Of a stretch of 64,000 nucleotides of DNA, positions 27,037 to 62,775 are shown piece after piece (within the stretch, counting starts at the first letter, position 1; the number at the start of each line of letters is the position of its first letter). The notes under the pieces were generated by a model. It worked only from the letters and a program-made list of their open reading frames with translations, was not told the DNA's origin and ran no database searches. The stretch lies in the NCBI RefSeq assembly GCF_055900595.2, contig NZ_CM148325.1; one strand, 5' to 3'. A program made the position numbers and the translations under genes.

Positions 27037-28290
27037 TTATGCACGAATGGTGTAATCACCAATGCCGATCCACTTGTAGGTGGTCAGAGCTTCCAGCCCC
27101 ATTGGGCCGCGCGCGTGGAGTTTTTGTGTGCTTACCGCAACTTCCGCCCCCAGACCAAACTGGCCGCCGTCGGTAAAACGCGTAGAGGCGTTAACGTAAA
27201 CAGCGGAGGAATCCACTTCGTTAACAAAACGCTGGGCGTTGCGCATATCGCGGGTCAGGATCGCATCGGAATGTTGCGTGCCGTGTTCACGAATATGGGC
27301 GATGGCATCGTCAAGATCGCTGACGATTTTAACGTTCAAGTCTAATGACAGGAACTCATCGTCATACTCTTCGGCTTTAACAGCCACCACCTTCGCTGGG
27401 CCTGCCTGCAACTGCGCCAGCGCAGTTGCGTCAGCGTGTAATGTCACGCCGCTTTCCGCCATTTGCTTGCTTAATGCGGGCAGGAAGCTATCTGCGATGT
27501 TTTTATTTACCAGCAACGTTTCTACCGTATTACACGTGCTCGGGCGCTGAGTTTTCGCGTTGACAATCACTTTCAATGCTTCAGCGATCTCTGCACTTTC
27601 ATCAACGTAAATATGGCATACGCCTATACCACCTGTGATTACCGGAATCGTCGACTGCTCGCGGCACAGTTTATGCAACCCAGCCCCGCCGCGTGGGATC
27701 AGCATGTCGATGTATTTATCCATACGCAGCATTTCACTGACCAGCGCACGGTCAGGATTATCAATCGCCTGCACGGCACCCGCCGGTAAGCCACAGGATT
27801 TCAGGGCGTCCTGAATCACCGCCACCGTTGCCGCGTTAGTGCGACACGTTTCTTTGCCGCCGCGCAGGATCACCGCGTTACCTGTTTTCAGGCACAGCGA
27901 AGCAACATCTACCGTCACGTTCGGGCGCGCTTCATAAATCACGCCAATCACCCCCAGCGGCACGCGACGGCGTTCCAGACGCAGGCCGCTGTCCAGCACC
28001 CCGCCATCAATTACCTGCCCCACTGGATCGGCGAGGTTACACACCTGGCGCACATCATCGGCAATGCTTTTCAGCCGTGCGGGCGTCAGTGCCAGGCGGT
28101 CAAGCATCGCTTCGCTAAGGCCATTGGCACGCGCGTCAGCAACATCCTGGGCGTTAGCATTGAGGATGCTTTCGCTTTGTGCTTCCAGTTCATCGGCGAT
28201 TTTTTCCAGCACGCGATTTTTTTCGCGGCTGGAGAGTTGCGCTAATTTATACGAGGCTTGCTTCGCGGCAATGCCCATTTGTTCCAGCAT
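27037..28290 (-). CDS. proA: Gamma-glutamyl phosphate reductase
   Basis: 417-aa translation matches ProA. Confidence 0.95.
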
Positions 28291-28301
28291 CGGCCTGCTC
28301 C

Positions 28302-29405
28302 TTAACGGGTAATCATATCATCACGGTGAACGGCAACCGGGCCGTATTCATATCCCAGTATTGCATCAATTTCTTGCGAGTGGTGTCCGGCAATACGGCG
28401 TAATGCATCGCTGTTGTAACGACTAACGCCGTGGGCGATATCGCGACCTTCGAGGTTGCAAATGCGGATGACTTCACCACGCGAGAAATTGCCAGTCACG
28501 CTTTTAATGCCTTTCGGCAACAGGGAGCTGCCGCGTTCAAGAATGGCGGCGGTTGCCCCTTCATCTACCGTGATTTCACCCGCAGGCGGCGCACCGAAAA
28601 TCCAACGTTTGCGGTTTTCAAGCGGAGTCGCCTGGGCATGGAACAGCGTACCGACGGAAATACCTTCCATCACATCACCAATGACACCCGGCTTACTGCC
28701 CGCGGCAATAATGGTGTCGATACCCGCACGGCAAGCCACGTCCGCGGCCTGCAATTTAGTGCTCATGCCGCCGGTTCCAAGACCTGAAACGCTGTCACCA
28801 GCAATCGCGCGCAGAGCGTCATCAATGCCGTACACATCTTTAATCAGTTCTGCCTGCGGATTGCTACGCGGATCAGCGGTATACAAACCTTTTTGATCGG
28901 TCAGCAACAACAGTTTATCGGCACCCGCCAGAATCGCCGCCAGCGCCGAAAGGTTATCGTTATCGCCGACTTTAATCTCTGCAGTAGCGACAGCATCGTT
29001 CTCATTGATTACCGGAACGATGTTGTTATCGAGCAGCGCACGCAAGGTGTCGCGGGCGTTCAGGAAGCGTTCACGGTCTTCCATATCAGCACGAGTTAGC
29101 AGCATCTGCCCGACGTGAATGCCATAAATCGAAAACAGCTGTTCCCACAGTTGAATCAGTCGACTCTGCCCTACCGCCGCCAGAAGTTGTTTCGAGGCAA
29201 TAGTCGCTGGCAGTTCCGGGTAACCCAGGTGCTCACGTCCGGCGGCAATCGCCCCCGACGTCACAATTACAATCCGATGCCCGGCGGCATGTAGCTGCGC
29301 GCACTGGCGAACAAGTTCAACGATATGGGCACGGTTCAGGCGGCGCGATCCGCCTGTTAGCACACTGGTGCCGAGTTTTACCACCAGCGTCTGGCTGTCA
29401 CTCAT
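28302..29405 (-). CDS. proB: Glutamate 5-kinase
   Basis: Start moved to [16 protein letters not shown] (367 aa). Confidence 0.95.
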
Positions 29406-29692
29406 GATTCTCTGCCATTCAATTTTAGGGAAAATGATATCAAACGAACGTTTTAGCAGGACTGTCGCCGGTTGCCAACCATCTGCAAGCAAAGCATGGC
29501 GTTTTGTTGCGCGGGATCAGCAAGCGTAGCGGCAGTTGTTTACGCTTTTATTACAGATTTAATAAATTACCACATTTTAAGAATATCATTAATCTGTAAT
29601 ATATCTTTAACAATCTCAGGTTAAAAACTTTCCTGTTTTCAACGGGACACTCCCGCTGAATATTCGCGCGTTAATTAAAATCAGGAATGAAA

Positions 29693-30748
29693 ATGAAAAA
29701 GAGCACTCTGGCATTAGTGGTGATGGGCATTGTGGCATCGGCATCCGTACAGGCCGCAGAAATATATAACAAAGACGGTAATAAACTGGATATCTATGGC
29801 AAAGTTAAAGCCATGCATTATATGAGCGATAATGACAGTAAAGATGGCGACCAAAGTTATATCCGTTTTGGTTTTAAAGGCGAAACACAAATTAACGATC
29901 AACTGACCGGTTATGGTCGCTGGGAAGCAGAGTTTGCCGGAAATAAAGCAGAGAGTGATACTGCTCAGCAAAAAACGCGTCTTGCCTTTGCCGGGTTGAA
30001 ATATAAAGATTTGGGTTCTTTCGACTATGGTCGTAACCTGGGGGCGCTGTATGACGTGGAAGCCTGGACCGATATGTTCCCGGAATTCGGCGGCGATTCC
30101 TCCGCGCAGACCGACAACTTTATGACCAAACGCGCCAGCGGACTGGCAACGTATCGGAACACCGACTTCTTCGGCGTTATCGATGGTCTGAACTTAACCC
30201 TGCAATATCAAGGAAAAAACGAAAACCGCGACGTTAAAAAGCAAAACGGTGATGGCTTCGGCACGTCATTGACATATGACTTTGGCGGCAGCGATTTTGC
30301 CATTAGTGGGGCCTATACCAACTCCGATCGCACCAACGAGCAGAACCTGCAAAGCCGTGGCACGGGCAAGCGTGCAGAAGCATGGGCAACAGGCCTGAAA
30401 TACGATGCCAATAATATTTACCTGGCAACTTTCTATTCTGAAACGCGTAAAATGACGCCAATCTCTGGCGGCTTTGCCAATAAGACGCAGAACTTTGAAG
30501 CAGTCGCTCAATACCAATTCGACTTTGGCCTGCGTCCATCGCTGGGTTATGTCTTATCGAAAGGGAAAGATATTGAGGGCATCGGTGATGAGGATCTGGT
30601 CAATTATATTGATGTCGGTGCTACATATTATTTCAACAAAAATATGTCAGCGTTTGTTGATTATAAAATCAACCAACTGGACAGCGATAACAAATTAAAT
30701 ATTAATAATGATGATATTGTCGCGGTTGGGATAACCTATCAGTTTTAA
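29693..30748 (+). CDS. phoE: Outer membrane phosphoporin PhoE
   Basis: [31 protein letters not shown]...; second in-frame ATG chosen. Confidence 0.95.
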
Positions 30749-30786
30749 TGGAGATTGCCGGATGCGGCGCATCCGGCACTTTTCAC

Positions 30787-31245
<459 letters not shown>

Positions 31246-32490
31246 TTAACACAATCGTTTTTCGATCCAGCTCGTGATTTCCTGAAGACCTTTGTCAAAA
31301 TTCCGATACACCGGATTAAACGGAATCTCTAACAATTTACCATCAGCAGATGATGAGGTGATTAAGCGTGAGTCCTCTTCCGGGCTGAACGGATCGTTCT
31401 TCCAGTAGCCTGATAACATTGGCGTTGGGCAGCGACGGCCCAGCAATCCTTGCACTTTTAATGAATAACGATTCAGTTCCACACGCAACGCTTCATCGGA
31501 AGCATCATGCATCCCCAAACGACTCGCCAGAACGTCAAGATACATTTCCGGCACCTGTTGCTGGCACTTAAAATCACTCAACAGGGTATGAACTACCGGA
31601 CCAAGACAGGCAACCGCTTTCAGACGCGGCGATTCAAGATATGCCAGACGCACAGCAACGTTAGAGCCAAAACGGAAACCAAAGGCCGCGACACGGGTGT
31701 GATCCACCCACGGGACGTTAGGCAGCGCCTTTAAGACGTGCTGATGCAACAGGCTGGAGTCCTGGGTGAGCTTCCATTTTGAAGAAAAGCCCACCGACGG
31801 CATATCAATAGTCAGCATCGCAATGCCGCGCGGGGCAAAATAACGTTCATACAGACTGTAATAATCCGTCTGCATCGCATCCAGACCACCACACATTAAT
31901 ACCGTCGGGAACGGGCCATCGCCTTTCGGCATATGCAAAAAGCCGGTGATGGGCGCACCGCCTGGTACGGTAAACTCCATCTGCCGCATCGTGCCCGGCA
32001 GACGTTGGGCGGCCTCTTCATAGGCACGGTTTGACAAAGCCTGCGCTTGCTCGGCCAGGTCATCCCCTTTCAGATGAGGATAGGCGGCAATGTTGTACAA
32101 CGTGGCCGCATGCAGCCAGTGACGACCACTGAGTTGTGGATCTTCTTCCGCACAAGCTTTTTGTTGCCACACCATCGCCTGGGTGGCCCATTCATAAATC
32201 CAGTTGCCGCCGCGGTAGCCAATCACCGTATCGTATAAATCATCGTCGGTACGTTCAGCATCGCTCATCACAATACGCGCCTGAACGTCGAGGATTTCAC
32301 GTGGGTCAATGCCGCGCCAGATCCACATCAGACGGTTTATCATGCGATACCAGTGGGGGATGGTTTTACCATCAAGGGCCGACTGCACAGGCGGTTGTGC
32401 GCCGTGATTAAAGCGGCGGACTAGCGTCGAGGTTTCAGGATGTTTAAAGCGGGGTTTGAACAGGGTTTCGCTCAGGTTTGCCTGTGTCAT
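31246..32490 (-). CDS. frsA: Esterase FrsA (fermentation/respiration switch protein)
   Basis: 414-aa translation [27 protein letters not shown]... Confidence 0.95.
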
Positions 32491-32581
32491 GGATGCAGCC
32501 TCCAGAATACTTACTGGAAACTATTGTAACCTGCCTGAAGTTAAAAAGAACAACGCCCGGCAGTGCCAGGCGTTGAAAAGA

Positions 32582-33040
32582 TTAGCGCCCGGAGATTGGC
32601 GGGACGAATACGACGCCCATATCCCACGGTTGTTCAATCCAGGTATCTTGTGGGATATCAACAACATAATCATCAACCAGCGGACGACCTGCCGGTTTAG
32701 CGAAGATGGTGACAAAGTGCGCTTTTGGATACATTTCACGAATCGCAACCGCAGTACCGCCGGTATCCACCAGATCATCAATAACGATGAAGCCTTCGCC
32801 ATCGCCTTCTGCGCGTTTCAGCACTTTAAGCTCGCGCTGGTTGTCGTGATCGTAGCTGGAAATACAAACGGTATCGACATGACGAATACCCAGTTCACGC
32901 GCCAGTAACGCACCCGGTACCAGACCGCCACGGCTTACGGCAATAATGCCTTTCCATTGTTCAGAAGGCATCAGTCGGCTTGCGAGTTTACGTGCATGGA
33001 TCTGCAACATGTCCCAGGTGACGATGTATTTTTCGCTCAT
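32582..33040 (-). CDS. gpt: Xanthine-guanine phosphoribosyltransferase
   Basis: 152-aa translation [23 protein letters not shown]... Confidence 0.95.
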
Positions 33041-33300
33041 GTGAAGTGTCCCAGCCTGTTTATCTACGGCTTAAAAAGTGTTCGAGGGGAAAATAGGTTG
33101 CGCGAGATTATAGAGATCTGACGCACTAAAAACCAGTATTTCACATGAGTCCGCGTCTTTTTACGCACAGCCTCTCCCTGACGCGGGATAAAGTGGTATT
33201 CTCAAACATATCTCGCAAGCCTGTCTTGTGTTGACAACATTTTCTGCTAACCCTGTGACCTGCAATACTGTTTTGCGGGTGATCGACAAGGAGACTTAAC

Positions 33301-34758
33301 GTGTCTGAACTGTCTCAATTATCTCCACAGCCGCTGTGGGATATTTTTGCCAAAATCTGTTCTATTCCTCACCCGTCCTATCATGAAGAGCAACTCGCTG
33401 AATACATTGTTGGTTGGGCAAAAGAGAAAGGTTTCCATGTCGAACGCGATCAGGTGGGTAATATCCTGATTCGTAAACCTGCTACCGCAGGTATGGAAAA
33501 TCGTAAACCAGTCGTCTTGCAGGCCCACCTCGATATGGTGCCGCAGAAAAATAACGATACCGTGCACGATTTCACTAAAGATCCTATCCAGCCTTATATT
33601 GATGGCGAATGGGTTAAAGCGCGCGGTACCACGCTGGGTGCGGATAACGGCATTGGTATGGCCTCTGCACTGGCGGTTCTGGCTGACGAAAACGTGGTTC
33701 ACGGCCCGCTGGAAGTGCTGCTAACCATGACCGAAGAAGCCGGTATGGACGGGGCGTTCGGCTTACAGAGCAACTGGTTGCAGGCTGACATTCTGATTAA
33801 CACCGACTCCGAAGAAGAAGGTGAAATCTACATGGGTTGTGCTGGGGGTATCGACTTCACCTCCAACCTGCATTTAGATCGTGAAGCGGTTCCAGCTGGT
33901 TTTGAAACCTTCAAGTTAACCTTAAAAGGTCTGAAAGGCGGTCACTCCGGCGGTGAAATCCACGTTGGCCTGGGTAATGCCAACAAACTGCTGGTGCGCT
34001 TCCTGGCGGGTCATGCGGAAGAGCTGGACCTGCGCCTTATCGATTTCAACGGTGGCACACTGCGTAACGCCATCCCGCGTGAAGCCTTTGCGACCATCGC
34101 TGTCGCAGCTGATAAAGTCGACGCCCTGAAAACGCTGGTGAATACCTATCAGGAGATCCTGAAAAACGAGCTGGCAGAGAAAGAGAAAAATCTGGCATTG
34201 CTGCTGGACTCTGTTGCGAACGATAAAGCTGCCCTGATTGCGAAATCTCGCGATACCTTTATTCGTCTGCTGAACGCCACCCCGAACGGTGTGATCCGCA
34301 ACTCCGACGTGGCAAAAGGCGTGGTTGAAACCTCACTGAACGTCGGTGTCGTGACCATGACCGACAACAACGTAGAAATTCACTGCCTGATCCGTTCTCT
34401 GATCGACAGCGGTAAAGACTACGTGGTGAGCATGCTGGATTCGCTGGGTAAACTGGCAGGCGCGAAAACCGAAGCGAAAGGCGCATATCCTGGCTGGCAG
34501 CCGGACGCTAACTCTCCGGTGATGCATCTGGTACGTGAAACCTATCAGCGTCTGTTCAACAAGACGCCGAACATCCAGATTATTCACGCGGGTCTGGAAT
34601 GTGGCCTGTTTAAAAAGCCGTATCCGGAAATGGACATGGTTTCTATCGGGCCAACCATCACCGGTCCACACTCTCCGGATGAGCAAGTTCACATCGAAAG
34701 CGTAGGCCATTACTGGACACTGCTGACAGAACTGCTGAAAGAAATTCCGGCGAAGTAA
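33301..34758 (+). CDS. pepD: Cytosol non-specific dipeptidase (aminoacyl-histidine dipeptidase)
   Basis: 485 aa, GTG start, MSELSQLSPQPLWDIFAKICSIPHPSYHEE... Confidence 0.95.
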   Translation: MSELSQLSPQPLWDIFAKICSIPHPSYHEEQLAEYIVGWAKEKGFHVERDQVGNILIRKPATAGMENRKPVVLQAHLDMVPQKNNDTVHDFTKDPIQPYIDGEWVKARGTTLGADNGIGMASALAVLADENVVHGPLEVLLTMTEEAGMDGAFGLQSNWLQADILINTDSEEEGEIYMGCAGGIDFTSNLHLDREAVPAGFETFKLTLKGLKGGHSGGEIHVGLGNANKLLVRFLAGHAEELDLRLIDFNGGTLRNAIPREAFATIAVAADKVDALKTLVNTYQEILKNELAEKEKNLALLLDSVANDKAALIAKSRDTFIRLLNATPNGVIRNSDVAKGVVETSLNVGVVTMTDNNVEIHCLIRSLIDSGKDYVVSMLDSLGKLAGAKTEAKGAYPGWQPDANSPVMHLVRETYQRLFNKTPNIQIIHAGLECGLFKKPYPEMDMVSIGPTITGPHSPDEQVHIESVGHYWTLLTELLKEIPAK

Positions 34759-34814
34759 TTTTTTGATTTGCTGCCGGATGGCGTTTGATCGCCTTCCGGC
34801 AGTTTCATCCTTTC

Positions 34815-35429
34815 TTATCCTTCGATAAAAGCCATCCCTGTAAACGTCCGTCGCGGGTTGCCACGTTCAATCTGGTGATGGAACATTCGCCGCTGCGATT
34901 TCAGCGCCGCGCTATTTTCCTGTTGCTGTTGCTCCAGCTTCCAGGCAATCAGCAATCGCGCCAGCCGTTTGTTGGCATGTTGGCTGCGCTCTGACTGAAC
35001 CTTCACGCTAATCCCGGATGCCAGATGCGTGGCGCGTACCGCCGAGTCGGTTTTATTGACATGTTGACCGCCCGGCCCCGACGAACGCAGCGTCTCATAA
35101 TGGATCGCATCGGATTGCTCCTGCTCATCTGCAGTAAAACGCCCAATGCCCAGAAACCAGTTTTTGCGCCCATGATGAGGGCGATACGGACTCGGACAAA
35201 TCCACTGGATAGTGCCACACCAGCTTTCGCTTAGTGCCCATGCGTTGTCGCCATCAAGTGAAACCAGCGCCGAACGCAGTGTGTCAGAGTAGCGACCCGT
35301 TTCTGTTTCCAGCACCGTTACCGCGACGTCTTGTCGGGCAGCTTCTTTAATCAGCCTGTCCAGTGCCTTTTTCACTGCGAGACAACATTCTTCCGGCCCC
35401 TGAGCTGAGGAGAGTTGTAGCAAGATCAT
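34815..35429 (-). CDS. prfH: Peptide chain release factor homolog PrfH (apparently intact)
   Basis: GGQ motif [10 protein letters not shown]; start MILLQL... overlaps upstream RtcB stop (ATGA). Confidence 0.85.
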
Positions 35430-36565
35430 CCTTTTTTCCCTCCACTGTTTTTGAGCGTCAGCACCGGACGCAGTCGCGCGACAGGAATAATTAAACCGGC
35501 CTGCACCAGACATTGCACCACACTTTCAGCCGATTTATAGGCTTGTGGCGCTTCTTCAAAGATGAGTTGTTTATCGCGACAAATTACCCGACTGCCAAGT
35601 TCAGTACGTGAGAGTTGCGTCGCCGTGTATTTCGCTGCCAGACGCCCTTTACACTCGGTGCGCCCCCATTTACGCCCTGCCCCATGCGCCAGTGAGTGAA
35701 GCGTTTTTTCGTTCGCAACAGGTTTAACCAGCCAGGAGTAATCACCGCGTGAACCGGGAATAATCACCAGACCGTTGTCATCCGGCGTAGCCCCTTTACG
35801 GTGTAACCATCCTTGTTGATCGCCGATTCGACATGCGCTAACAAAGTTATGCGCCACATCCAGAACCGAATTTCCGTTGGCCTTAACTTGTTGCATTATG
35901 CGCAAAGCGATCAGCTGGCGATTAATACGCGCAAACGCCAGCGCATCATCATGTTCCGCAATATAACTTAGCGCGTCGTCACTGCCTTCCGGCAAACCAT
36001 GATGCGAAAACGAGGCAATATGCCGCTGTAAAATAGACTGCCCTAAACCACGCGAGCCGCTATGGACCAGCAGTTGCAGATGCTGCGCATCCAGACCTGA
36101 CAGTGCAAACAGTTCCGCGTCGATGATTTGATCAATCTGTTGCAGTTCTGCAAAGTGGTTACCGCCACCGATAGAGCCAAGCGCGCAGCGCCACGGATGC
36201 TGTGCAAACGCTGACGGCAGGTTTTCCTCCAGCCAGCTTTCTTCAGCAACGTCATCCAGCGCAGATAATCGCTTTTCAAACTTATCGGCGTTGTATTTAC
36301 GCGCGAGAATATCTGTTTGCCATAGCGCCATACCGCAGCCGATATCATTGCCGACCAGTGCCGGGTAAAAACGGCCTACGGAGAAGAACGCTGCGCCAAT
36401 CGGATAGCCGCGTCCGGGGTGCAAATCTGGCATCCCCACTACGCGCTGCATGTTGGGTAAATTTGCCGTGGTGTGTAATTGTTGGATCGCTGAACTCTCG
36501 ATCCACAGGTCATCAGATGCGATGGTAAATACCGCATCGGATAAGGGACGAATATATTTGCCCAT
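35426..36565 (-). CDS. RtcB-family RNA ligase homolog (prfH partner)
   Basis: 379 aa; position immediately upstream of prfH; RtcB-like GGNHFAE region. Confidence 0.75.
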
Positions 36566-36810: not shown

Positions 36811-37263
36811 TTAATGTTGCGGTTTATATCGCATATGAAAATTAGTAAACCACGCTCCCCGGCATTCAACGCGTTGCTGCTTAACTGTCTGAAAACCATA
36901 ACGTTCAAAAAAGGGTTTTGCGGTTATGCTGGCGTCCACCGTAAGTTCGGATTCAGACTTAATCAAAGGTTTTAACAAAGCGCTGGCAACCCCACGGCGA
37001 GTATATTCAGGGTCAACAAATAACATATCGATATAATGTTCAATGCGGGAAATAAAACCAACCGGTTGTGCATTAATCACAGCAACTCGCACTTGTGATT
37101 TCGCGAGTTGCTCTTTCCAGCGAGATTCGTCAATCTGCGCCCAGGCGGCAATTTGTTGTGGTGAATAATGCTGACTGGCGGTCATCGTAACCGCTCTAAT
37201 GAAAATAGCGCATAGTTGCTGAAAATCGCAAGGCTGATAGTTTCTTATTTGTATGTTATTCAT
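36811..37263 (-). CDS. yafP: GNAT-family acetyltransferase YafP
   Basis: 150 aa, overlaps dinB stop; yafN-yafO not present between dinB and yafP. Confidence 0.85.
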
Positions 37264-38315
37264 AATCCCAGCACCAGTTGTCTTTCCATTTGCGGATCCA
37301 GCAACGTCACATGCAGCCCCACCAGCCGCACACCGCGCCCGCCACGGCGTTCATCCCAGGTTTTACGCGCAGTGGCGATCAAGTCAGCTTTATTCAGCCG
37401 CGGCCAGACGTGTTCCTGGGTGGTTTGCTGAAAATCGTCGAACTTTAATTTCACCCCCTGGCGGGCAATCAGTAAATCAGGTTTTACCTTTGCCAGACGA
37501 CGTTCAAGTTCCGGGTACAACCGCTCGATGATCGCTTCACATTCAGACCAGTGATGAATATCTTCCGCCATGGTGCGTTCTACACCGACGGATTTTCGCA
37601 ACCTTTCGCTGTTAACGTCGCGCTCGTCAATGCCCTGGCTACGCTCCCACAAAATGCGGCCAAATTTGCCAAAGCGTTTAAGCAACGTCACCAGATCACA
37701 CTTTTGTACATCGCCACAGGTTCGTAGCCCCATCGCTTCCAGTTTTGCCGCCGAGACTTTGCCGACACCGGGAATTTTTGCCAGCGGTAAGGTTTGCAGA
37801 AATGCCGGAACTTCTGCCGGCGTAATCACAAACTGACCGTTGGGTTTATTCATGTCTGAGGCGATTTTGGCGAGAAACTTGACCGGCGCAACGCCCGCAG
37901 ACGCCGTCAGTTGCAGCTCGTTGAAGATCGTCTGGCGGATTTCCTGAGCGATAAGGGTCGCAGAGCCGTGGCAATGGACACTATCGGTGACGTCGAGATA
38001 GGCTTCATCCAGTGACAGCGGCTCAATACGCGATGTGTAGCGAGAGAAGATTTCGCGGATATGATTTGACGCTTCTTTGTAGGCGTCAAAGCGCCCTGGA
38101 AGCAAGGTGAGATGCGGACACAGTTTGAGCGCCATGCCGGTTGGCATTGCGCTACGCACGCCAAATTTACGCGCGGGATAATTGGCGGTGCTGATCACCC
38201 CCCGGCGTTCGCGGCTGCCGCCAATAGCAATAGGGATATCGCGCAGGGCGGGATTGTCGCGCATCTCCACCGCGGCGAAAAAGCAGTCCATATCCACATG
38301 AATGATTTTACGCAT
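37260..38315 (-). CDS. dinB: DNA polymerase IV
   Basis: 351 aa [33 protein letters not shown]... Confidence 0.95.
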
Positions 38316-38385
38316 TGCTCACCTCTCAATACTGGTAAAGTATACAGTGATTTCAGAGTTTGAGAAAAGCGTAAAGATTCAGCAT

Positions 38386-39170
38386 TTAACGCGTTCGCTG
38401 CGAAAGCACCTGCTGCTTATCCAGCTTTTTCACCAGCGGCTGCACCACCTTATCCCCATGCTGACCAAAATATTGATACAACGTATCGGACGCGCTTTTG
38501 GTGAGCACCATAATCTCAATGCGCCGGTTACCCGCGCTTTGTGGGTTTTTGGCATCCAGCAGCATCTGGTCCGCCATCGCGCTTACCTGCATCACTTTAT
38601 CTTCCGGCATCCCGGCGTCTTCCAGCACCCGACGGGCCGAGAGCGCGCGGTCACCCGAAAGGTTCCAGTTGTTGTAGATATTGCTTTTATAGGCCATCGC
38701 ATCGGTATGCCCGGTAATAATAATTTTGTTGTCGAGCGAGTCGAATACCGGCGCGAGTTCCACCAGCAGCGTTTTAAAGAACGGCATAATCTTCGCGCTG
38801 CCGCGTTCAAACATATTGCGGTTCTGGTCATCTTTAATCAGCACGCGTAATCCCTGCGGGACAATCTCCATCTCCAGATTGGCTTCCATATGCGCATCGC
38901 GGGCGATGGTGTTGATACTGGTCGCCAGCTCGCCAAGCTCAGTGGCAGACTTCTTCTTCACTAGCGCCGTTTTCTCGTTGACGTCGCGGGCTTTTTTCTC
39001 CGTCTCTTCCGGCACCGCCACGGTGGCAGGTTTCGGCGGATGCGTCGGGCTGATTTTATTTAACGGCGACAGCCCGCCGCCATTGAAAATCGACTGCCCG
39101 TGCAGCGCGGCGATAATGCTTTCACGCTCAGATTTACTAACACTGTTGACAATCAACTTTATTGTCGTCA
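38386..39170 (-). pseudogene. lafU: Flag-2 MotB-like protein LafU, 5'-truncated remnant (approximate boundary)
   Basis: OmpA/MotB C-terminal domain ITGHTDAMAYKSNIYNNWNLSGDRALSARRVL...; N-terminal region overlaps lfhA fragment. Confidence 0.65.
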
Positions 39171-40855
39171 CCAAAGGGGCCGAGCGTATTTCCGAGGTTT
39201 CTGCCCGTTTTACCCTGGACGCGATGCCCGGCAAGCAGATGGCGATTGACGCCGATCTTAACGCCGGGTTGATCAACCAGGCGCAGGCGCAGACCCGCCG
39301 CAAAGATGTTGCCAGCGAGGCCGATTTCTACGGCGCGATGGACGGGGCATCGAAGTTTGTGCGCGGGGATGCCATCGCCGGGATGATGATTCTGGCGATC
39401 AACCTGATTGGCGGCGTTTGTATCGGGATCTTCAAATACAACCTGAGCGCCGATGCCGCCTTCCAGCAGTATGTGCTGATGACCATCGGTGACGGCCTGG
39501 TGGCGCAGATCCCTTCCCTGCTGCTCTCCACCGCGGCGGCGATTATCGTCACCCGCGTCAGCGACAACGGCGATATCGCCCATGATGTGCGCCACCAGCT
39601 GCTGGCAAGCCCGTCGGTGCTCTACACCGCCACCGGGATTATGTTCGTGCTGGCGGTGGTGCCGGGAATGCCGCACTTCCCGTTCCTGATGTTCAGCGCC
39701 TTGCTTGGCTTTACCGGCTGGCGAATGAGCAAACGCCCGCAGGCGGCGGAGGCGGAAGAGAAAAGCCTCGAAACGCTGACCCGCACAATCACTGAAACCA
39801 GCGAGCAACAGGTCAGTTGGGAAACCATTCCGCTGATCGAGCCCATCAGTTTAAGCCTCGGTTACAAACTGGTGGCGCTGGTGGATAAAGCGCAGGGCAA
39901 CCCGCTCACCCAGCGTATTCGCGGCGTGCGGCAGGTGATTTCCGACGGCAACGGCGTGCTGCTGCCGGAGATCCGCATTCGCGAAAACTTCCGCCTCAAG
40001 CCCAGTCAGTACGCCATTTTCATCAACGGCATTAAGGCCGATGAAGCGGATATTCCGGCGGATAAGCTGATGGCTCTGCCCTCCAGTGAAACCTACGGTG
40101 AGATTGACGGCGTGCTGGGGAACGACCCGGCGTACGGGATGCCGGTGACCTGGATCCAGCCTGCGCAGAAAGCGAAGGCGCTGAATATGGGGTATCAGGT
40201 GATCGACAGCGCCAGCGTAATTGCCACGCATGTGAATAAGATTGTGCGCAGCTATATTCCTGATTTGTTTAACTATGACGATATTACTCAGCTGCATAAC
40301 CGTTTGTCGTCGATGGCACCGCGCCTGGCGGAGGATTTGAGTGCGGCGCTGAATTACAGCCAGTTGCTGAAAGTGTACCGGGCACTGCTGACCGAAGGCG
40401 TTTCCCTGCGCGATATCGTCACCATCGCCACCGTGCTGGTCGCCAGTAGCACCGTCACCAAAGATCATATTCTGCTGGCGGCCGATGTGCGCCTGGCACT
40501 GCGGCGCAGCATTACCCATCCGTTCGTTCGCAAGCAGGAGCTGGCGGTGTATACGCTGAATAATGAACTGGAAAATCTGCTGACCAACGTGGTGAATCAG
40601 GCGCAACAGGGCGGCAAAGTGATGCTTGATAGCGTGCCAGTGGACCCGAATATGCTCAACCAGTTCCAGAGTACGATGCCGCAGGTAAAAGAGCAGATGA
40701 AAGCGGCGGGGAAAGACCCGGTGCTGCTGGTGCCGCCGCAGCTGCGCCCGTTGCTGGCGCGTTATGCGAAGTTGTTTGCGCCGGGGTTGCATGTGCTGTC
40801 GTATAACGAAGTGCCGGATGAGCTGGAGTTGAAGATAATGGGGGCGTTGATGTAG
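39171..40855 (+). pseudogene. lfhA: Flag-2 FlhA-like export protein LfhA, 5'-truncated remnant (approximate boundary)
   Basis: FlhA motif GAERISEVSARFTLDAMPGKQMAIDADL begins mid-ORF; no membrane N-terminus. Confidence 0.65.
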
Positions 40856-40857
40856 GT

Positions 40858-40990
<133 letters not shown>

Positions 40991-41000: not shown

Positions 41001-42981
<1,981 letters not shown>

Positions 42982-43106: not shown

Positions 43107-43247
<141 letters not shown>

Positions 43248-43250
<3 letters not shown>

Positions 43251-43745
43251 TAAAATGATACGCTCTCCGGCACTAAAATCCGTTACGTCCCCCGCCCAAT
43301 CGATGGGATATAACCCTTTCGCGACATCACGATGGAACGTTGAGAATGGCCAATCACTTACCTGCTTTACCCAGCCATGTTTTACTGGATTTATATAAAT
43401 ATAATCAACATGATGGCGATAATCTTTGGTGTTGCGGATGGCATGCTCCCAAAAACGCGGTTGCCAGATATTTTTCAATCCGCAAACATGGGTGAATTGC
43501 TTTTTAATCTCCCGCCAGCGCGAGGAAAAATCATCATCGCTTTCGGGTAATGTCCAGATACAGTGCATATGCTCCGGCAAAACGACCCAGGCGTTAATTT
43601 CAAAAGGCCTGTCTCGCTTAACGTTAATAATGGCGTTACGGAGCATCTGTAACTGAGCGGTCAAAAGTTGGCTTCGACGATTCCGTAAATTTACCGTGAA
43701 AAACCATGTTCCCCCCTTTATATAAAAACGACGATATTCAGACAT
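43248..43745 (-). CDS. rayT: REP-associated tyrosine transposase
   Basis: 165 aa MSEYRRFYIKGGTWFFTVNLRNRRSQLL...; flanked by REP clusters. Confidence 0.9.
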
Positions 43746-43834: not shown

Positions 43835-43926
43835 CAGACTCGTAGGCATGATAAGACGCGCCAGCGTCGCATCAGGCATCGGCGCATAACCGCCGGATGC
43901 GGCGTACACGCCTTATCCGCCCTACA
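43835..43926. repeat. REP cluster flanking rayT
   Basis: GTAGGCATGATAAGACGCGCCAGCGTCGCATCAGGC and CCGGATGCGGCGTACACGCCTTATCC units. Confidence 0.8.
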
Positions 43927-44971: not shown

Positions 44972-45712
44972 ATGCGTAAAATCGCATTAATTCTTGCGAT
45001 GTTGTTGATCCCGTGCGTTTCGTTTGCCGGTTTGCTGGGCAGCAGTAGCTCGACCACGCCAGTGAGCAAAGAGTATAAGCAGCAGTTGATGGGATCCCCT
45101 GTCTACATCCAGATCTTCAAGGAAGAACGTACGCTCGATCTCTACGTCAAAATGGGCGAGCAATATCAACTGCTCGACAGCTATAAAATCTGTAAATATT
45201 CCGGCGGCTTAGGGCCAAAACAGCGTCAGGGCGATTTCAAAAGCCCGGAAGGGTTTTATAGCGTCCAGCGTAATCAGTTAAAACCAGACAGCCGTTACTA
45301 CAAAGCGATTAATATTGGATTCCCCAATGCCTATGACCGTGCGCATGGTTATGAAGGGAAATACCTGATGATCCACGGCGATTGTGTTTCCATCGGCTGC
45401 TACGCGATGACCAATCAAGGTATTGATGAGATCTTCCAGTTCGTTACCGGCGCGCTGGTGTTTGGTCAGCCGAGTGTGCAGGTAAGTATTTATCCGTTCC
45501 GCATGACCGACGCCAACATGCAGCGCCATAAATATTCCAACTTTAAGGACTTCTGGGAGCAACTGAAGCCGGGCTACGACTACTTTGAACAGACCCGTAA
45601 GCCACCGACCGTTTCTGTGGTCAATGGCCGTTACGTCGTCAGCAAACCGTTGAGCCATGAAGTGGTGCAGCCACAGCTGGCATCAAACTACACGCTCCCC
45701 GAGGCAAAATAA
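44972..45712 (+). CDS. yafK: L,D-transpeptidase-family protein YafK
   Basis: 246 aa [20 protein letters not shown]...; [14 protein letters not shown] catalytic region. Confidence 0.9.
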
Positions 45713-46450
45713 GCGCCATTCGCCTGGCATAATCTTTTGCCAGGTTTCATTGCCCGTCAGCGGCTGTGTCGCAATCACCGTGACCACATCATTCGGTGTG
45801 GTCTGCGAGCTGAAGTCGATTTCCACATCCTGATCCAGCAACGTTGCCACGCCAAACGGCGCGCGGCGGGTGATCCAGTGCAGATTGGTCGAGCAATACG
45901 CCATTACATAGCGTCCGTCCGAAAGTAGCATGTTGAAAACGCCCTTCTGCCGCAGTTCATCCGCCAGTGAGGCGATATATTTAAACACTGCCGCCATGTT
46001 GCCCGGTGTGCGCGGGTAACGCTGCGTTAATTTATTCAGGAGCCAGCAGAAGGCTTTTTCGCTGTCGGTTTCGCCTACCGGGCGGAAGTTGCCAGTTTCC
46101 AGTGATTTGTAGCCCGTCAGTTGTCCGTTATGGGCATAAGTCCAGTTACGCCCCCATAACTCGCGGGTAAACGGATGAGTATTTTCCAGTGCCACCTCGC
46201 CCCGATTCGCCTGGCGAATATGAGCAATTACCGAGCAGGATTTGATTGGATAGTCCTGGACCAGTTTGGCGATAGGGGAATTAAAGCTGGGTTGCGGATC
46301 TTTAAATGTGCGACAGCCTTTACCTTCGTAAAAGGTAATGCCCCAGCCATCTTTATGTGGCCCGGTTCCACCACCACGCTGCACCAGACCGGTGAAACTA
46401 AAGCAGATATCGGTAGGGACGTTAGCGCTCATCCCGAGCAATTCGCACAT
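45683..46450 (-). CDS. yafJ: Class II glutamine amidotransferase YafJ
   Basis: Start set at MCELLGM (N-terminal Cys nucleophile), GGAGG RBS. Confidence 0.9.
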
Positions 46451-46510
46451 GGGTAACCTCCACAACAGCGAGGGCGCATGGCCCCCGGCGAAGATTGATT
46501 TAAGAATTTT

Positions 46511-46655
46511 CAGGTCGGATGCGGCGTGAACGCATTATTCGGCCTACGGTTCGGGTACAGATTTGTAGGCATGATAAGACGCATCAGCGTCGCATCAGGC
46601 ATCAGCGCACAAGTGCCGGATGCGGCGTAAACGCCTTATCCAGCCTACGCCAGAC
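46511..46655. repeat. REP cluster
   Basis: GGATGCGGCGTGAACGC and GCCGGATGCGGCGTAAACGCCTTATCC units. Confidence 0.8.
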
Positions 46656-47234
46656 TTACTTAACCATCTCTTTTTCAATTAACTGGATCAGGATATGGAT
46701 CACTTTAATGTGAATCTCCTGAATGCGGTCGGCATAACCAAAGTGTGGAACGCGAATTTCGATATCCGCCGTGCCAGCCATTTTGCCGCCGTCTTTACCG
46801 GTCAGGGTGATCACTTTCATCCCCTTCTCACGCGCCGCTGCGATCGCTTTGATCACGTTCGCAGAGTTACCGGAAGTGGAGATCCCCAGCAGTACATCGC
46901 CTTCGCGACCTACCGCTTCAACGTAACGGGAGAAAATATCGTTGAAACCAAAATCGTTACCGACGCAGGAAATATGACTAACGTCAGAAATGGCAATCGC
47001 CGGATAGCCCGGACGGTTTTCACGGTAGCGCCCCGTCAACTCTTCGGCAAAGTGCATGGCGTCGCAATGGGAACCGCCGTTGCCGCAGGAAAGCACTTTG
47101 CCACCGGCTTTAAAGCTGTCTGCTAACAGGACCGCCGCGCGCTGAATGGCGTGAATATTGGCGTCATCTTTTAAAAAGTTAGCCAGCGTTTCCGCCGCTT
47201 CGTTCAGTTCGTTACGAATAAGATCCTGGTACAT
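46656..47234 (-). CDS. gmhA: Phosphoheptose isomerase
   Basis: Start set at [21 protein letters not shown] (192 aa), GAAGGA RBS. Confidence 0.95.
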
Positions 47235-47473
47235 GAGGATATCCTTCAGCATAAATGTAATAGACAAAATGCAGTGTACCGGATACCGCCAAAAGCGAGA
47301 AGTACGGGCAGGTGCGATGACCAGGACTTTTTGACCTGAAGTGCGGATAAAAACAGCAACAATGTGAGCTTTGTTGTAATTATATTGTAAACACATTGCT
47401 AAATATTTTTACATCCACTACAACCATATCATCACAAGTGGTCAGACCTCCTACAAGTAAGGGGCTTTTCGTT

Positions 47474-49918
47474 ATGATGATTTTGAGTATTCTCGCTACG
47501 GTTGTCCTGCTCGGCGCGTTGTTCTATCACCGCGTGAGCTTATTTATCAGCAGTCTGATTTTGCTCGCCTGGACAGCCGCCCTCGGCGTCGCTGGTCTGT
47601 GGTCGGCGTGGGTACTGGTGCCTCTGGCCATTATCCTCGTACCGTTTAACTTTGCGCCTATGCGTAAGTCGATGATTTCTGCGCCGGTATTTCGTGGATT
47701 CCGTAAGGTGATGCCACCGATGTCACGCACTGAAAAAGAAGCGATTGATGCAGGCACTACCTGGTGGGAAGGCGACTTGTTCCAGGGTAAGCCGGACTGG
47801 AAAAAGCTGCATAACTATCCGCAGCCGCGCCTGACCGCAGAAGAGCAAGCGTTTCTCGACGGCCCGGTAGAAGAAGCCTGCCGGATGGCGAATGATTTCC
47901 AGATTACTCATGAGCTGGCGGATCTGCCGCCGGAGTTGTGGGCGTACCTTAAAGAGCATCGTTTCTTCGCGATGATTATCAAAAAAGAGTACGGCGGGCT
48001 GGAGTTCTCGGCTTATGCCCAGTCTCGTGTGCTGCAAAAACTCTCCGGCGTGAGCGGGATCCTGGCGATTACCGTCGGCGTGCCGAACTCATTAGGCCCG
48101 GGCGAGCTGCTGCAACATTACGGCACTGATGAGCAGAAAGATCACTATCTGCCGCGTCTGGCGCGTGGTCAGGAAATCCCTTGCTTTGCACTGACCAGCC
48201 CGGAAGCGGGTTCCGATGCGGGCGCTATCCCGGATACCGGGATTGTCTGCATGGGCGAGTGGCAGGGCCAGCAGGTGCTGGGGATGCGACTGACCTGGAA
48301 CAAACGCTACATTACGCTCGCGCCAATTGCGACCGTGCTTGGGCTGGCGTTTAAACTTTCCGACCCGGAAAAACTGCTGGGTGGCGCAGAAGATTTAGGC
48401 ATTACCTGTGCACTTATCCCGACCACCACGCCAGGCGTGGAAATTGGTCGTCGCCACTTCCCGCTGAACGTACCGTTCCAGAACGGACCGACGCGAGGTA
48501 AAGATGTCTTCGTACCGATCGACTACATTATCGGCGGACCAAAAATGGCCGGGCAAGGCTGGCGGATGCTGGTGGAGTGTCTCTCCGTGGGCCGCGGCAT
48601 CACCCTACCTTCCAACTCAACCGGCGGCGTGAAATCGGTAGCACTGGCAACGGGCGCGTATGCGCACATTCGCCGTCAGTTCAAAATCTCTATCGGTAAG
48701 ATGGAAGGGATTGAAGAGCCGCTGGCGCGTATTGCCGGTAATGCCTACGTGATGGATGCTGCGGCATCGCTGATTACCTACGGAATTATGCTCGGTGAAA
48801 AACCTGCCGTGCTGTCGGCTATCGTTAAGTATCATTGTACCCACCGTGGGCAGCAGTCGATTATTGATGCGATGGATATCACCGGGGGTAAAGGCATTAT
48901 GCTCGGTCAGAGCAACTTCCTGGCACGAGCTTACCAGGGCGCACCGATTGCCATCACCGTTGAAGGGGCCAACATTCTGACCCGCAGCATGATGATCTTC
49001 GGTCAGGGAGCGATTCGTTGCCATCCGTACGTGCTGGAAGAGATGGAAGCGGCGAAGAACAATGACGTTAACGCGTTCGATAAACTGCTGTTCAAACATA
49101 TTGGCCACGTCGGCAGTAACAAAGTTCGCAGCTTCTGGCTGGGCCTGACGCGCGGTTTAACCAGCAGCACACCAACCGGCGATGCCACTAAACGTTATTA
49201 TCAGCACCTGAACCGCCTGAGTGCCAACCTCGCCCTGCTTTCTGATGTCTCGATGGCTGTGCTGGGCGGCAGCCTGAAACGTCGTGAGCGTATCTCGGCA
49301 CGTCTGGGGGATATTTTAAGCCAGCTTTACCTCGCCTCTGCCGTTCTGAAGCGTTATGACGACGAAGGCCGTAATGAAGCCGATCTGCCGCTGGTGCACT
49401 GGGGCGTACAGGATGCGCTGTATCAGGCTGAACAGGCGATGGATGATTTACTGCAAAACTTCCCGAACCGCGTGGTTGCCGGGCTGCTGAATGTGGTGAT
49501 CTTCCCGACCGGACGTCATTATCTGGCACCGTCTGACAAGCTGGATCATAAGGTGGCGAAGATTTTACAAGTGCCGAACGCCACCCGTTCACGTATTGGT
49601 CGCGGTCAGTACCTGACCCCGAGCGAGCATAACCCGGTTGGTTTACTGGAAGAGGCGCTGGTGGATGTGATTGCCGCCGACCCAATTCATCAGCGGATCT
49701 GTAAAGAGCTGGGTAAAAACCTGCCGTTTACCCGTCTGGATGAACTGGCGCATAACGCGCTGGCGAAGGGGCTGATTGATAAAGATGAAGCCGCTATTCT
49801 TGTGAAAGCTGAAGAGAGTCGTCTGCGCAGTATTAACGTTGATGACTTTGATCCGGAAGAGCTGGCGACGAAGCCGGTAAAGTTGCCGGAGAAAGTGCGG
49901 AAAGTTGAAGCCGCATAA
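47474..49918 (+). CDS. fadE: Acyl-CoA dehydrogenase FadE
   Basis: Start set at [21 protein letters not shown] (814 aa). Confidence 0.95.
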
Positions 49919-49960
49919 TTGAATAACGGAGCCGAAAGGCTCCGTTTCTTTATCCGCTAA

Positions 49961-50434
49961 TTATTTAAAATTAAAGCCATCCGGATGATTTTCCAGGCTG
50001 CCGGTCAACGCCGCGAATAGCACCGTTTTACCATCAATCGAAAGCGCATCATTCACATTCAACCAGGTGAGTTTCTCTTGCGAGGTTTTCTCATCAATGG
50101 TCGAGAACAGCCCCGTCATCTGATTAGATTTCTCGGACCACATCACAGCGATACGTTGCGAGCCACAGTCATGCGGTTTGCACGCGCTCATCACCTGATA
50201 CGTCTCATCTCCCAATGTCACGGTTTGTGCGGGGGTATAAGTACCGCCTTTCATCACCCAGGCAGGCAGCTTATGCCCTTGCACCATCTGACTAAACGCA
50301 GCTTTGGTGGTTTCGCCCTTTGCAAGGCTGCTAATGGTTAAATCATCCTGCGCCATTGCACTGGTGGCGATGACCAGTGCGGCGACTGTCGTTATTGCCT
50401 TAAACATCATTCCTCCCGAGCTTATCCTGCCCAT
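49961..50434 (-). CDS. ivy: Inhibitor of vertebrate lysozyme
   Basis: 157 aa with signal peptide and CKPHDCG motif. Confidence 0.9.
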   Translation of the reverse strand: MGRISSGGMMFKAITTVAALVIATSAMAQDDLTISSLAKGETTKAAFSQMVQGHKLPAWVMKGGTYTPAQTVTLGDETYQVMSACKPHDCGSQRIAVMWSEKSNQMTGLFSTIDEKTSQEKLTWLNVNDALSIDGKTVLFAALTGSLENHPDGFNFK

Positions 50435-50587
50435 GTTATTAACCTCCTAAAGCCTGGCGATAACACGATAATTTGCAAATCAGATATTTCCAATATCAGC
50501 ATTTGTTATCAATTTATTCTGCGCTAAGGCAACTGCCTGATAAGGTGTTAGAGTTATAAAACCCTTCGCATAAAGGAGTTGTACACC

Positions 50588-51343
50588 GTGCCTGGTTTGA
50601 AGATTACGCTTTTACAGCAACCACTGGTGTGGATGGATGGTCCTGCCAACCTGCGTCATTTTGATCGTCAACTGGAAGGTATTACCGGGCGCGATGTGAT
50701 CGTTCTACCGGAGATGTTTACCAGCGGCTTTGCCATGGAAGCGGCAGCTTCGTCGCTAGCACAAGATGACGTAGTGAACTGGATGACAGCTAAAGCGCAG
50801 CAGTGCAATGCGCTGATTGCAGGCAGTGTTGCATTACAAACGGAGTCTGGTTCGGTTAACCGCTTTTTGCTGGTTGAGCCGGGCGGCACGGTACATTTTT
50901 ATGATAAGCGTCATCTGTTCCGAATGGCAGATGAGCATCTGCATTATAAAGCGGGCAATGCGCGAGTGATTGTGGAATGGCGCGGCTGGCGTATTTTGCC
51001 GCTGGTGTGCTACGACTTACGTTTTCCGGTGTGGTCGCGCAATCTCAACGATTATGACCTCGCCCTGTACGTTGCCAACTGGCCTGCTCCGCGCTCTCTG
51101 CACTGGCAGGCATTGCTGACAGCCCGCGCGATTGAGAATCAGGCGTATGTAGCGGGATGTAATCGCGTCGGCAGCGATGGCAACGGCTGCCATTATCGCG
51201 GTGACAGCCGGGTGATTAATCCACAGGGCGAGATTATCGCTACTGCCGACGCGCATCAGGCAACGCGCATTGATGCGGAGCTGTCGATGGCGGTGTTACG
51301 GGAATATAGAGAAAAGTTTCCGGCATGGCAGGATGCGGATTAG
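50588..51343 (+). CDS. yafV: Omega-amidase/C-N hydrolase YafV
   Basis: GTG start 9 nt after AAGGAG; LPEMF (Glu) and [11 protein letters not shown] (Cys) nitrilase-superfamily motifs. Confidence 0.9.
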
Positions 51344-51389
51344 TTTAGGTTGTGGTGAGTGGGGGTTGTGTTTAGGGCCGGGGAGAGTT

Positions 51390-51784
51390 GGGGTATGACT
51401 ACGAAAGCCCGCTCTCCTGCGACCACTTTTATCATAGGAGTGTGGAAGTGCTTTTCCATCAATCGCGATGACGTCTTTGTCATCTGAAGAATGACATTCA
51501 CGCATCCGGTTAATAAAGCATTCGTGAAATTTTGCAGGACTGATACATGATACAACTCTGGCAATAGTATCGTGAACAGGAATACCATTTTCAAAATCAC
51601 CATATTGCTTCAAAAAATCGAGATGAGTTTCCCCGAAATCCTCTATATATTCCCAACCTTCTGCTCCAGAAATAACGGCACAAATAGTCAACAGTAGAAT
51701 ATCCGATAATTTATGTTCCACTTTCCAGGCTTGTCTGTAATCGGGGATAATAGAAATATGTTCCATCAATTTTTTAAGTTCCAT
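51390..51784 (-). pseudogene. H-repeat-associated (ISAs1-family) transposase, N-terminal fragment (yafF-like)
   Basis: [45 protein letters not shown]... then frame degenerates after about 130 aa. Confidence 0.7.
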
Positions 51785-52022
51785 TTTGTTCTCCTTAATT
51801 ATGTAAGGAGTATTTGATCATGTATAAGCAATAAAAAACAGCTTCAGGTAATGAGGAATATCTCAATTTTTAAACATAAAATGCGAATTGTTTAGTACAA
51901 AAAAGCAGCGTTACGTGATCTTTCCCTGCTAAGGCCGGTAAGGCTAACCTCGTCTGGTTCCGCCACCCGTGAGATTAGCCTCTCCGTTGGCGGTATTAAA
52001 ATCACTTAGTGGAGGTTGCCTT

Positions 52023-52487
52023 ATGGCTACAATCCTCCCCCCTGATTATGATTTACTGTCCATTCCTTTCAGTTCTGCCACCGATTTAACTGACCTGGCC
52101 GATCACTGCGATCGTTTCGCTGAAACTCTTATAGAGTGTCACGATCCGGCGCTGAAAATGGCGCTATATGGGCGTCTTCGCGCCTGTCTCGCCATTCTGC
52201 ATCCCACGCTGAACGAGCCGATTCCGTCCCATCTGGTGGACAGCCTGACGCTTGATGATTTGCCGACGTCGTTTCCGCGCTTTGAACCAGATGCAGAACA
52301 GTTGTGTCAGTATTGCCTGACGTTGCTCCAGCTTCTGACGGAACGGGCGCAGGGATCGGAAACACAACAATCCCTTACTGGATTACTGTGCGAACTGGTC
52401 TGGTTCTTTGCAGCAAAACTGAAAGCACCACGCTGGCTGCATACTGCTGATGGCGTGGTCTTTATCGAAGATCTGATCGAACCATAA
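52023..52487 (+). CDS. Hypothetical acidic protein (paralog of 5296-5766)
   Basis: MATILPPDYDLLSIPFSSATDLTDLADHCDRFAETLIE... with GGAGG RBS and conserved leader. Confidence 0.6.
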   Translation: MATILPPDYDLLSIPFSSATDLTDLADHCDRFAETLIECHDPALKMALYGRLRACLAILHPTLNEPIPSHLVDSLTLDDLPTSFPRFEPDAEQLCQYCLTLLQLLTERAQGSETQQSLTGLLCELVWFFAAKLKAPRWLHTADGVVFIEDLIEP

Positions 52488-52653
52488 GATGGATATCCCC
52501 GGATTCTCGCCTGTAAGTGCAGGCAGAGATCCGGGAGAATACCCGCATACATTCAGCGCAAACATTCCTGCCAGACCATCCGCGCGCGGTTCCTCTGTCA
52601 GTCACAGTCCGCATCGTAGATAAACTGATGTTCCGTAGCTGATGTAATTAAAC

Positions 52654-53268: not shown

Positions 53269-53313
53269 TGTCAGTTCCCTATTGGATTCAGTATAGAATC
53301 ATTAAGCACAGTT

Positions 53314-53511
53314 TCAATTTTCATAATCCAGAATTGGCTCATCTAATGCTTCTGAATAACGAAGAAGATTCTCTCGCAAATCTTCAAGGGATTCACCTCG
53401 CGGAGACACTGGTTTTTCACTATATCCACAAACCTTACCTGCTTCATTATAATATACCTCATAGATAGCAAGCTCCCCTTTAAATTGCATAACTCTATAA
53501 TTCCAAGTCAT
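53314..53511 (-). CDS. Small protein immediately downstream of Rhs C-terminal toxin domain, candidate cognate immunity
   Basis: 65-aa ORF starting 8 nt after the Rhs stop. Confidence 0.45.
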   Translation of the reverse strand: MTWNYRVMQFKGELAIYEVYYNEAGKVCGYSEKPVSPRGESLEDLRENLLRYSEALDEPILDYEN

Positions 53512-53519
53512 ATCTCCTC

Positions 53520-57942: not shown

Positions 57943-57972
57943 CTGTTCGTCCTTCCCGCTGAACTGGCTGGG

Positions 57973-58404: not shown

Positions 58405-58436
58405 TGTTATTTTTCCCTGAAAATTAATGAAATGGA

Positions 58437-60656: not shown

Positions 60657-60680
60657 GATATTTGCTCCTTTAATACCGGA

Positions 60681-61765: not shown

Positions 61766-61831
61766 TTTACTCTCATTAAATACTAATTGTTTGTATCGAA
61801 AATATTATCTGGAAAAATATTATTTTATATA

Positions 61832-62419: not shown

Positions 62420-62430
62420 CGCACTACCAC

Positions 62431-62751: not shown

Positions 62752-62775
62752 GATATTTATTCCTTTAATATCGGA

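Follow-up and report, generated by a model that had tools for sequence, protein, structure and literature searches.

A 36-kb Flag-2 deletion with an apparently shared nucleotide breakpoint in several genera, whose remnants seem to evolve like working genes

The divergent gene fragments lafU′ and lfhA′, found in the window analysed here (the whole 64,000-nt stretch of DNA), are confirmed by alignment to intact loci as a Flag-2 deletion scar, a finding that is correct and already known. Beyond this identification, our comparisons indicate that several genera share one nucleotide breakpoint for the 36-kb deletion and that the remnants evolve as working genes do; of all that is seen at the scar, only these two properties, the breakpoint shared between genera and the missing decay, merit follow-up. 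With roughly 40 genes, Flag-2 forms a second flagellar cluster; lafU and lfhA are its outermost genes and are transcribed outward. We hold it to be very probable that the pair represents a Flag-2 deletion scar, and we favour recombination with intact alleles as what has kept the fragments undecayed. For the window itself, the scar implies a strain without lateral flagella, because both fragments have lost their promoter, start codon and first transmembrane segments, and both lafU′ and lfhA′ are most likely functionless relics; the scar offers a handy marker locus and is otherwise minor.

The two fragments lie in divergent orientation with their missing 5′ ends facing each other. The left one comprises the 3′ 769 nt of lafU, a MotB-like lateral stator gene, and the right one the 3′ 1701 nt of the FlhA-like gene lfhA; in the open reading frame (ORF) listing and the sequence, their stop codons sit exactly at 38386 (lafU′, minus strand) and 40855 (lfhA′, plus strand), and the opposed ORFs meet near 39150–39300. 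The lafU′ product scores 468.8 bits against the NCBIfam LafU equivalog NF005273 (cutoff 383) over profile positions 43–297 of 297, and since the match begins at position 43 the N-terminus is absent. Pfam finds the OmpA/MotB C-terminal domain in this product and no PF13677 transmembrane helix/plug domain, which full-length relatives carry. The lfhA′ product matches Pfam FHIPEP at positions 99–656 of 657 and TIGR01398 (FlhA) at positions 119–677 of 678 with 589 bits, under the cutoff of 772 that the intact LfhA of E. coli MARGA_4 passes with 775 bits. Domain matches start internally in both products and both fragments are therefore 5′-truncated: lafU′ has lost its first 51–52 codons (cytoplasmic N-terminus, transmembrane helix and plug), and lfhA′ has lost codons 1–130/131 while keeping codons 132–697 and the stop. 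Neither product groups with the functional members of its family, which are full length, with an N-terminal transmembrane helix, plug and OmpA-like domain in LafU/MotB (profile positions 1–42 are absent from lafU′) and a score above the TIGR01398 cutoff in the FlhA/FHIPEP export gate (positions 1–118 are absent from lfhA′). A chance origin is ruled out because the fragments align to the intact genes at 93.5–95% identity over 958 nt and about 1770 nt. The stops and the NF005273, FHIPEP and TIGR01398 matches thus bear out the first-pass annotation, which had read the region as oppositely oriented, 5′-truncated fragments of a MotB-like and an FlhA-like gene.

Intact loci place these fragments at the two ends of Flag-2. 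In E. coli MARGA_4 (locus L003), lafU (10988–11911, minus strand) and lfhA (46946–49039, plus strand) enclose about 40 flagellar genes; the left side of the window alignment ends at 11756 and the right side resumes at 47339, and the deleted block measures 35,582 bp relative to this strain. The Flag-2 cluster of E. coli 042 (NC_017626.1, 284682–323159) likewise has lafU and lfhA outermost and transcribed outward; the left fragment ends at 322388 in the 3′ part of lafU and the right one starts at 286394 in lfhA. The window fragments are 93.5% identical to this locus, but the window lacks the 36,008 bp of structural, regulatory and export genes that lie between lafU codon 52 and lfhA codon 131 in 042. 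In this comparison the fragments correspond to the 3′ parts of the outermost genes, three other intact loci, MARGA_4 among them, give the same two-end mapping, and neither fragment aligns away from the two Flag-2 ends. The earlier claim of a Flag-2 cluster deletion is thus backed by four intact loci, by the junction match to K-12, by RefSeq annotation and by the literature. The 042 cluster also carries a frameshifted flgC, as described previously (Archer, 2011, PMC3032704).

The fragments had first been taken to overlap at about 39170, which holds for the ORFs and the annotation but not for homology: they lie back to back and abut at 39152–39154, a 3-nt ATC common to both parents. This ATC lies within a 9-of-12 imperfect repeat (CTGtTGAcaATC / CTGaTGAtcATC), and the breakpoint codons are W52/I53 in lafU and I131/N132 in lfhA. 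K-12 (L002) has exactly the junction sequence of the window, CTGTTGACAATCAACTTTATTGTCG, and so does Z0117EC0005 (L001), the closest relative of the window, on which RefSeq annotates lafU together with an FlhA pseudogene ‘missing N-terminus’. Microhomology was rejected as the reason for the choice of site, the junction having 3 nt versus many longer repeats between lafU and lfhA (64 exact direct repeats of at least 8 nt, one of them of 11 nt). Intact lfhA contains a near-repeat (L003 47294–47360) with copies AACTTTGTCGTC (N-F-V-V, codons 119–122) and AACTTTATTGTCGTC (N-F-I-V-V, codons 132–136), the second of which begins exactly at the deletion breakpoint.

Table 1. Coordinates in the window of the scar, its annotated reading frames and its neighbours.
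Feature	Position	Strand	Basis or remark
lafU′ remnant	38386..39154	-	stop codon 38386-38388; aligns to L003 10988-11756 and to 042
Deletion junction, ATC microhomology	39152..39154	.	three-way alignment of the window and both intact-locus ends
lfhA′ remnant	39155..40855	+	aligns to L003 47339-49039 and to 042
261-aa ‘LafU’ CDS, RefSeq style	38386..39171	-	annotation of the 99.7% identical locus L001
Mechanical 709-aa ORF	38726..40855	+	ORF listing
dinB	37260..38315	-	left neighbour, 70 nt downstream of the lafU′ stop
REP-like repeat	40858..40910	.	directly after the lfhA′ stop
IS110-family transposase gene, split	5′ piece 41102-41311; 3′ piece 42578-42981		
IS3-family element, orfA/orfB with programmed frameshift	41328-42541		interrupts the IS110-family gene
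rayT	43248-43745		on the lfhA′ side (rayT/yafL)

The LafU of RefSeq-style annotation has a GTG start at 39171, its first five to six codons (V-T-T-I-K-L) being antisense lfhA′, and matches a protein cluster of 6260 members (P0001); in the same annotation the FlhA pseudogene feature begins at 39137. The lfhA′ frame stays open for 143 further codons upstream of the junction, antisense through lafU′, and the 709-aa ORF that results from reading across the junction is probably meaningless. An Rfam scan of the scar found no RNA family.

The source for the Flag-2 scar is reportedly Ren et al. 2005 (J Bacteriol 187:1430), which all three of the papers that we draw upon cite. Excerpts of these papers describe the lfhA–lafU scar (Archer, 2011, PMC3032704; De Maayer, 2020, PMC6993521; Carter, 2024, PMC11420993), that of De Maayer reporting en bloc lfhA–lafU deletions across the Enterobacterales, with direct repeats cited at the deletion ends, and that of Carter the deletion in E. 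albertii. In the excerpts of the latter two papers the deletions leave the same truncated border genes, mostly in taxa where complete loci occur as well, and what is reported is presence and similarity; these excerpts contain no statement of a nucleotide-identical breakpoint between genera, nor of unrelaxed constraint in the remnants. Among 5426 complete E. coli genomes, 4071 (75%) contain the scar, counted as a match over at least 80% of a junction-spanning query, and 1318 (24%) contain deleted-side sequence. The deletion had initially been likened to that of K-12-like strains, and the junction is indeed the same as in K-12, but with three-quarters of complete genomes carrying it the scar is not K-12-specific. 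The K-12 scar, named fhiA–mbhA in the older nomenclature, has the same fragments, divergent orientation, neighbours (dinB; rayT/yafL) and junction, and its alignment to the window is ungapped over 2711 nt at 94.7% nucleotide identity.

The substitutions show that the scar is no simple pair of old pseudogenes in neutral decay. Both frames are free of stops and indels in 12 of 12 E. coli scar alleles, the window included, and pairwise dN/dS over the 2469 nt of the remnants is 0.014–0.05 (dS 0.04–0.31; dN 0.003–0.010). Third codon positions make up 315 of the 367 variable sites, those within 33 nt of the junction all fall at multiples of three, and the ratio of nonsynonymous to synonymous counts is 0.114 between scar alleles, 0.109 between scar and intact alleles and 0.103 between intact alleles. 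Over both remnants (2469 nt), the K-12 scar is 100% identical to the intact allele of MARGA_4 and the AVS0655 scar to that of strain 2/0, the two haplotypes so defined differing at 114 sites. Variants private to scar alleles comprise 64 synonymous and nine nonsynonymous changes (16 alleles; these variants are undatable and do not separate the models). One form of decay was observed in the E. albertii type strain NBRC 107761 (L004), whose lfhA′ has lost 22 bp and whose lafU′ is altered at the 3′ end, and another in an E. coli LafU′ protein (P0091) with an internal deletion of about 65 aa.

The remnants are also mosaic, with haplotype switches at or beside the junction. The window and Z0117EC0005 (99.7% identical) differ by 22 changes, all of them synonymous, in a 750-bp patch (39163–39916) that starts 9 nt to the right of the junction, and have almost no other differences in 10.6 kb. 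In the DETEC-S586 scar, lfhA′ is identical to that of 042 (0 of 1701 sites) whereas lafU′ differs at 35 of 768 (4.6%), with the first lafU′ difference 69 nt from the junction. The patch at 39163–39916 is a gene-conversion tract, its left end at the deletion junction or at most 200 bp from it. More broadly, the dinB–Flag-2 region (37260–40855) is hyperdiverse in E. coli: remnant dS is 0.15–0.31 between ordinary strains, dinB dS between the window and K-12 is 0.32, and intact Flag-2 clusters (MARGA_4 and loci L015, L016 and L028) differ by 4–6% throughout, compared with about 2–3% in the neighbouring proBA–pepD segment. Such diversity suggests old haplotypes or introgression. Among three intact loci there is no step in divergence at the deletion endpoints, a weak test in that the three haplotypes are roughly equidistant, and the Flag-2 interior as a separately mobile unit was set aside on this same, equally weak, absence of an endpoint discontinuity.

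The breakpoint recurs well beyond E. coli. A 22-mer across the junction matches the E. albertii type strain, and truncated LafU proteins that start with (M)(V)TTIKL/IVNSVSK or MKL/IVNSVSK (the slash marking the junction), i.e. antisense-lfhA codons fused to LafU I53, are carried by Citrobacter gillenii, Citrobacter amalonaticus, Citrobacter sp. R-1.5.2, Kluyvera ascorbata, Kluyvera sp., Atlantibacter hermannii and Enterobacteriaceae H11S18. At the DNA level, loci of K. ascorbata, C. amalonaticus and A. hermannii (L017, L019 and L020) share this architecture and, to the codon, this breakpoint, with genus-specific synonymous sites on either side of it, and the Kluyvera, Citrobacter and Atlantibacter scars have intact FHIPEP ORFs of 562–563 aa and OmpA ORFs of 277–286 aa. 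The K. ascorbata scar matches an intact locus of its own species at 98.6% identity from the junction outward. A protein search with the LfhA N-terminus returned mostly partial proteins and three usable intact endpoints from outside E. coli. In Kluyvera, Citrobacter and Atlantibacter, an exchange with Escherichia by homologous recombination is implausible.

As the cause of the absent decay we favour recombination. A deletion of about 36 kb removed everything between lafU codon 52 and lfhA codon 131 and joined two 3′ fragments 5′-end to 5′-end at the 3-nt microhomology. Scar (about 75%) and intact (about 24%) alleles coexist in the species, and on this reading the remnants would still recombine with full-length genes, on which purifying selection acts. 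The scar would thus move between haplotypes by homologous recombination rather than as an isolated pseudogene. Conversion tracts from intact donors would have to stop at the heterology, which would produce both the switches at the junction and the ‘native’ flanks right up to the junction, and remnant variants would be selected against on landing in intact alleles, leading to low dN/dS. Three facts sit uneasily with the overall account, namely that an old neutral scar should be decaying and these remnants show no decay, that two scar alleles fully match intact alleles of two different haplotypes, and that Kluyvera, Citrobacter and Atlantibacter have the same breakpoint in sequence native to them. 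All leave the identification as a Flag-2 scar untouched and bear on its origin, single or recurrent; refreshment by recombination still needs either an ancient cross-genus polymorphism or rare transfer of the scar between genera. If true, it would represent a clean natural example of functional alleles keeping ‘dead’ DNA from decaying.

The strongest competitor, possible in our judgement though not probable, is recurrent site-directed excision at lafU W52/I53 and lfhA I131/N132, with each scar having arisen recently from an intact local allele; stated for the group as a whole, and just as tentatively, Flag-2 may have been lost by precise, sequence-directed excision independently in Escherichia, Citrobacter, Kluyvera, Atlantibacter and relatives. 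Such a process would fit the same DNA-level breakpoint in E. coli, the window lineage, E. albertii, K. ascorbata, C. amalonaticus and A. hermannii, the genus-specific synonymous sites around that shared breakpoint, and the TTIKL/IVNS or KL/IVNS N-termini in C. gillenii, Citrobacter sp. R-1.5.2, Kluyvera sp. and H11S18, yet the synonymous sites at both endpoints vary between genera and no conserved DNA site is evident. It would also fit the close match of the K. ascorbata scar to its conspecific intact locus from the junction onward, the identity over the remnants of K-12 with MARGA_4 and of AVS0655 with strain 2/0, the coincidence of haplotype switches with the junction, and the undecayed state of the remnants; however, every within-species observation could equally be produced by recombination, with intact-donor tracts stopping at the heterology, and selection against remnant variants that recombine into intact alleles would likewise give a low dN/dS. 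The failure of microhomology to explain the site points towards excision as well, but the core cluster annotations of the four intact loci include no integrase, recombinase or transposase gene, similarity to dif does not rise above background, and the reciprocal (circle) junction CTGATGATCATCCACAGCGTCAT has no match in the 5426 E. coli genomes or in metagenome contigs, assemblies being poor at showing rare circles. A dif/Xer-like site was rejected as a candidate, the best match at the endpoints or in the scar being 14–15 of 28, within the background distribution. Terminal inverted repeats of the deleted block were likewise rejected, the only matches found by eye being of 6–7 nt (TGTTTAT, ATTGTC), at unequal offsets and unconvincing, and present because similar Leu/Val-Phe-Ile/Met and Ile-Val codons occur there.

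In its large block, reproducible junction and 2–3 nt of identity, the Flag-2 deletion bears a resemblance, and only that, to the sigK skin element, the heterocyst nifD/fdxN elements and Xer-excised islands. Unlike these, the Flag-2 block comes without an adjacent or internal recombinase, a dif-like site or a found reciprocal junction, and unlike the gene-interrupting elements (sigK skin, nifD/fdxN) its excision rebuilds no gene. We rate refreshment by recombination somewhat higher than recurrent directed excision; were the latter true, this would be an undescribed precise excision of a costly surface organelle, and the 36-kb flagellar cluster would be a reproducibly discardable module.

It is very unlikely that selection maintains the truncated genes for a function, for example with LfhA′ (TM5–8 and the cytoplasmic domain) or LafU′ (the peptidoglycan-binding domain) at work in another system. 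Frames that are open in every one of the 12 E. coli scars as well as in those of Kluyvera, Citrobacter and Atlantibacter, the low dN/dS (0.02–0.05) and the retention of lafU as a CDS by RefSeq are what such genes might display, but the two ORFs begin within a few nucleotides of each other, without intergenic space, and promoter-like matches reach only 9 of 12, with four in the region where shuffles give an expectation of 1.7; a promoter scan gave none for lafU′ and a single 9-of-12 plus-strand match upstream of lfhA′. LafU′ lacks its membrane anchor and any signal peptide and, by analogy with MotB topology, its periplasmic domain could not reach the periplasm. Moreover, the identity of scar and intact alleles means that conservation need not arise in the scar state, and decay is tolerated in E. 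albertii.

Least credible of all, and excluded as it stands by the dN/dS and identity data, is a single ancient deletion that was inherited vertically and left to neutral decay as a classical pseudogene scar, which would fit a junction sequence that is the same everywhere and the lesions of the E. albertii type strain and of the E. coli P0091 cluster, but under which dN should be near dS (0.2–0.3) rather than at 0.003–0.010, variable sites should not be concentrated at third positions and, close to the junction, at multiples of three, scar alleles should not be identical to intact ones, and both alleles would need to have survived the divergence of at least four genera; with recombination with intact alleles added, the ancient deletion becomes the best explanation, the one that we prefer above.

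The window itself, by its nucleotide identities, is not K-12-like, being about 94–96% identical to K-12 (94.3% over dinB–lafU′–lfhA′, about 96% over proA–pepD and about 92% over rayT–yafL). Its core genes, measured at window positions 27203–35338 and 45000–51900, are about 96% identical to those of mainstream E. coli (phylogroups A, B1, B2 and E), with 95.6–96.7% for dpaA–fadE–lpcA, and only 8 of 5426 complete genomes reach at least 99% identity; the window would appear to come from a rare, divergent lineage of E. coli, possibly a cryptic clade. Unlike K-12, it lacks the yafN–yafO toxin–antitoxin pair, with yafP directly following dinB at a 4-nt overlap (window 36811–38315), and it carries full-length rtcB (35426–36565) and prfH upstream, of which K-12 has only fragments; strain 2/0 is arranged in the same way. 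A further difference from K-12 is the nested pair of IS110- and IS3-family elements (41102–42981) between lfhA′ and rayT, with an Rfam isrC match at 42387–42509 (minus strand) within the 5′ end of the IS3-family element. Further copies of the REP-like repeat that follows lfhA′ occur in several Flag-2 intergenic regions of intact loci, and REP/BIME-type repeats at 43110–43181 and 43845–43922 (minus strand), seen as Rfam naRNA4 matches, flank rayT. At the right-hand end of the window, 45000–64000 is covered over at least 80% in only 11 genomes, so this segment is variable, and the annotation of the best-matching genome places VgrG (type VI secretion) and Rhs-repeat core-domain genes at approximately 52000–64000.
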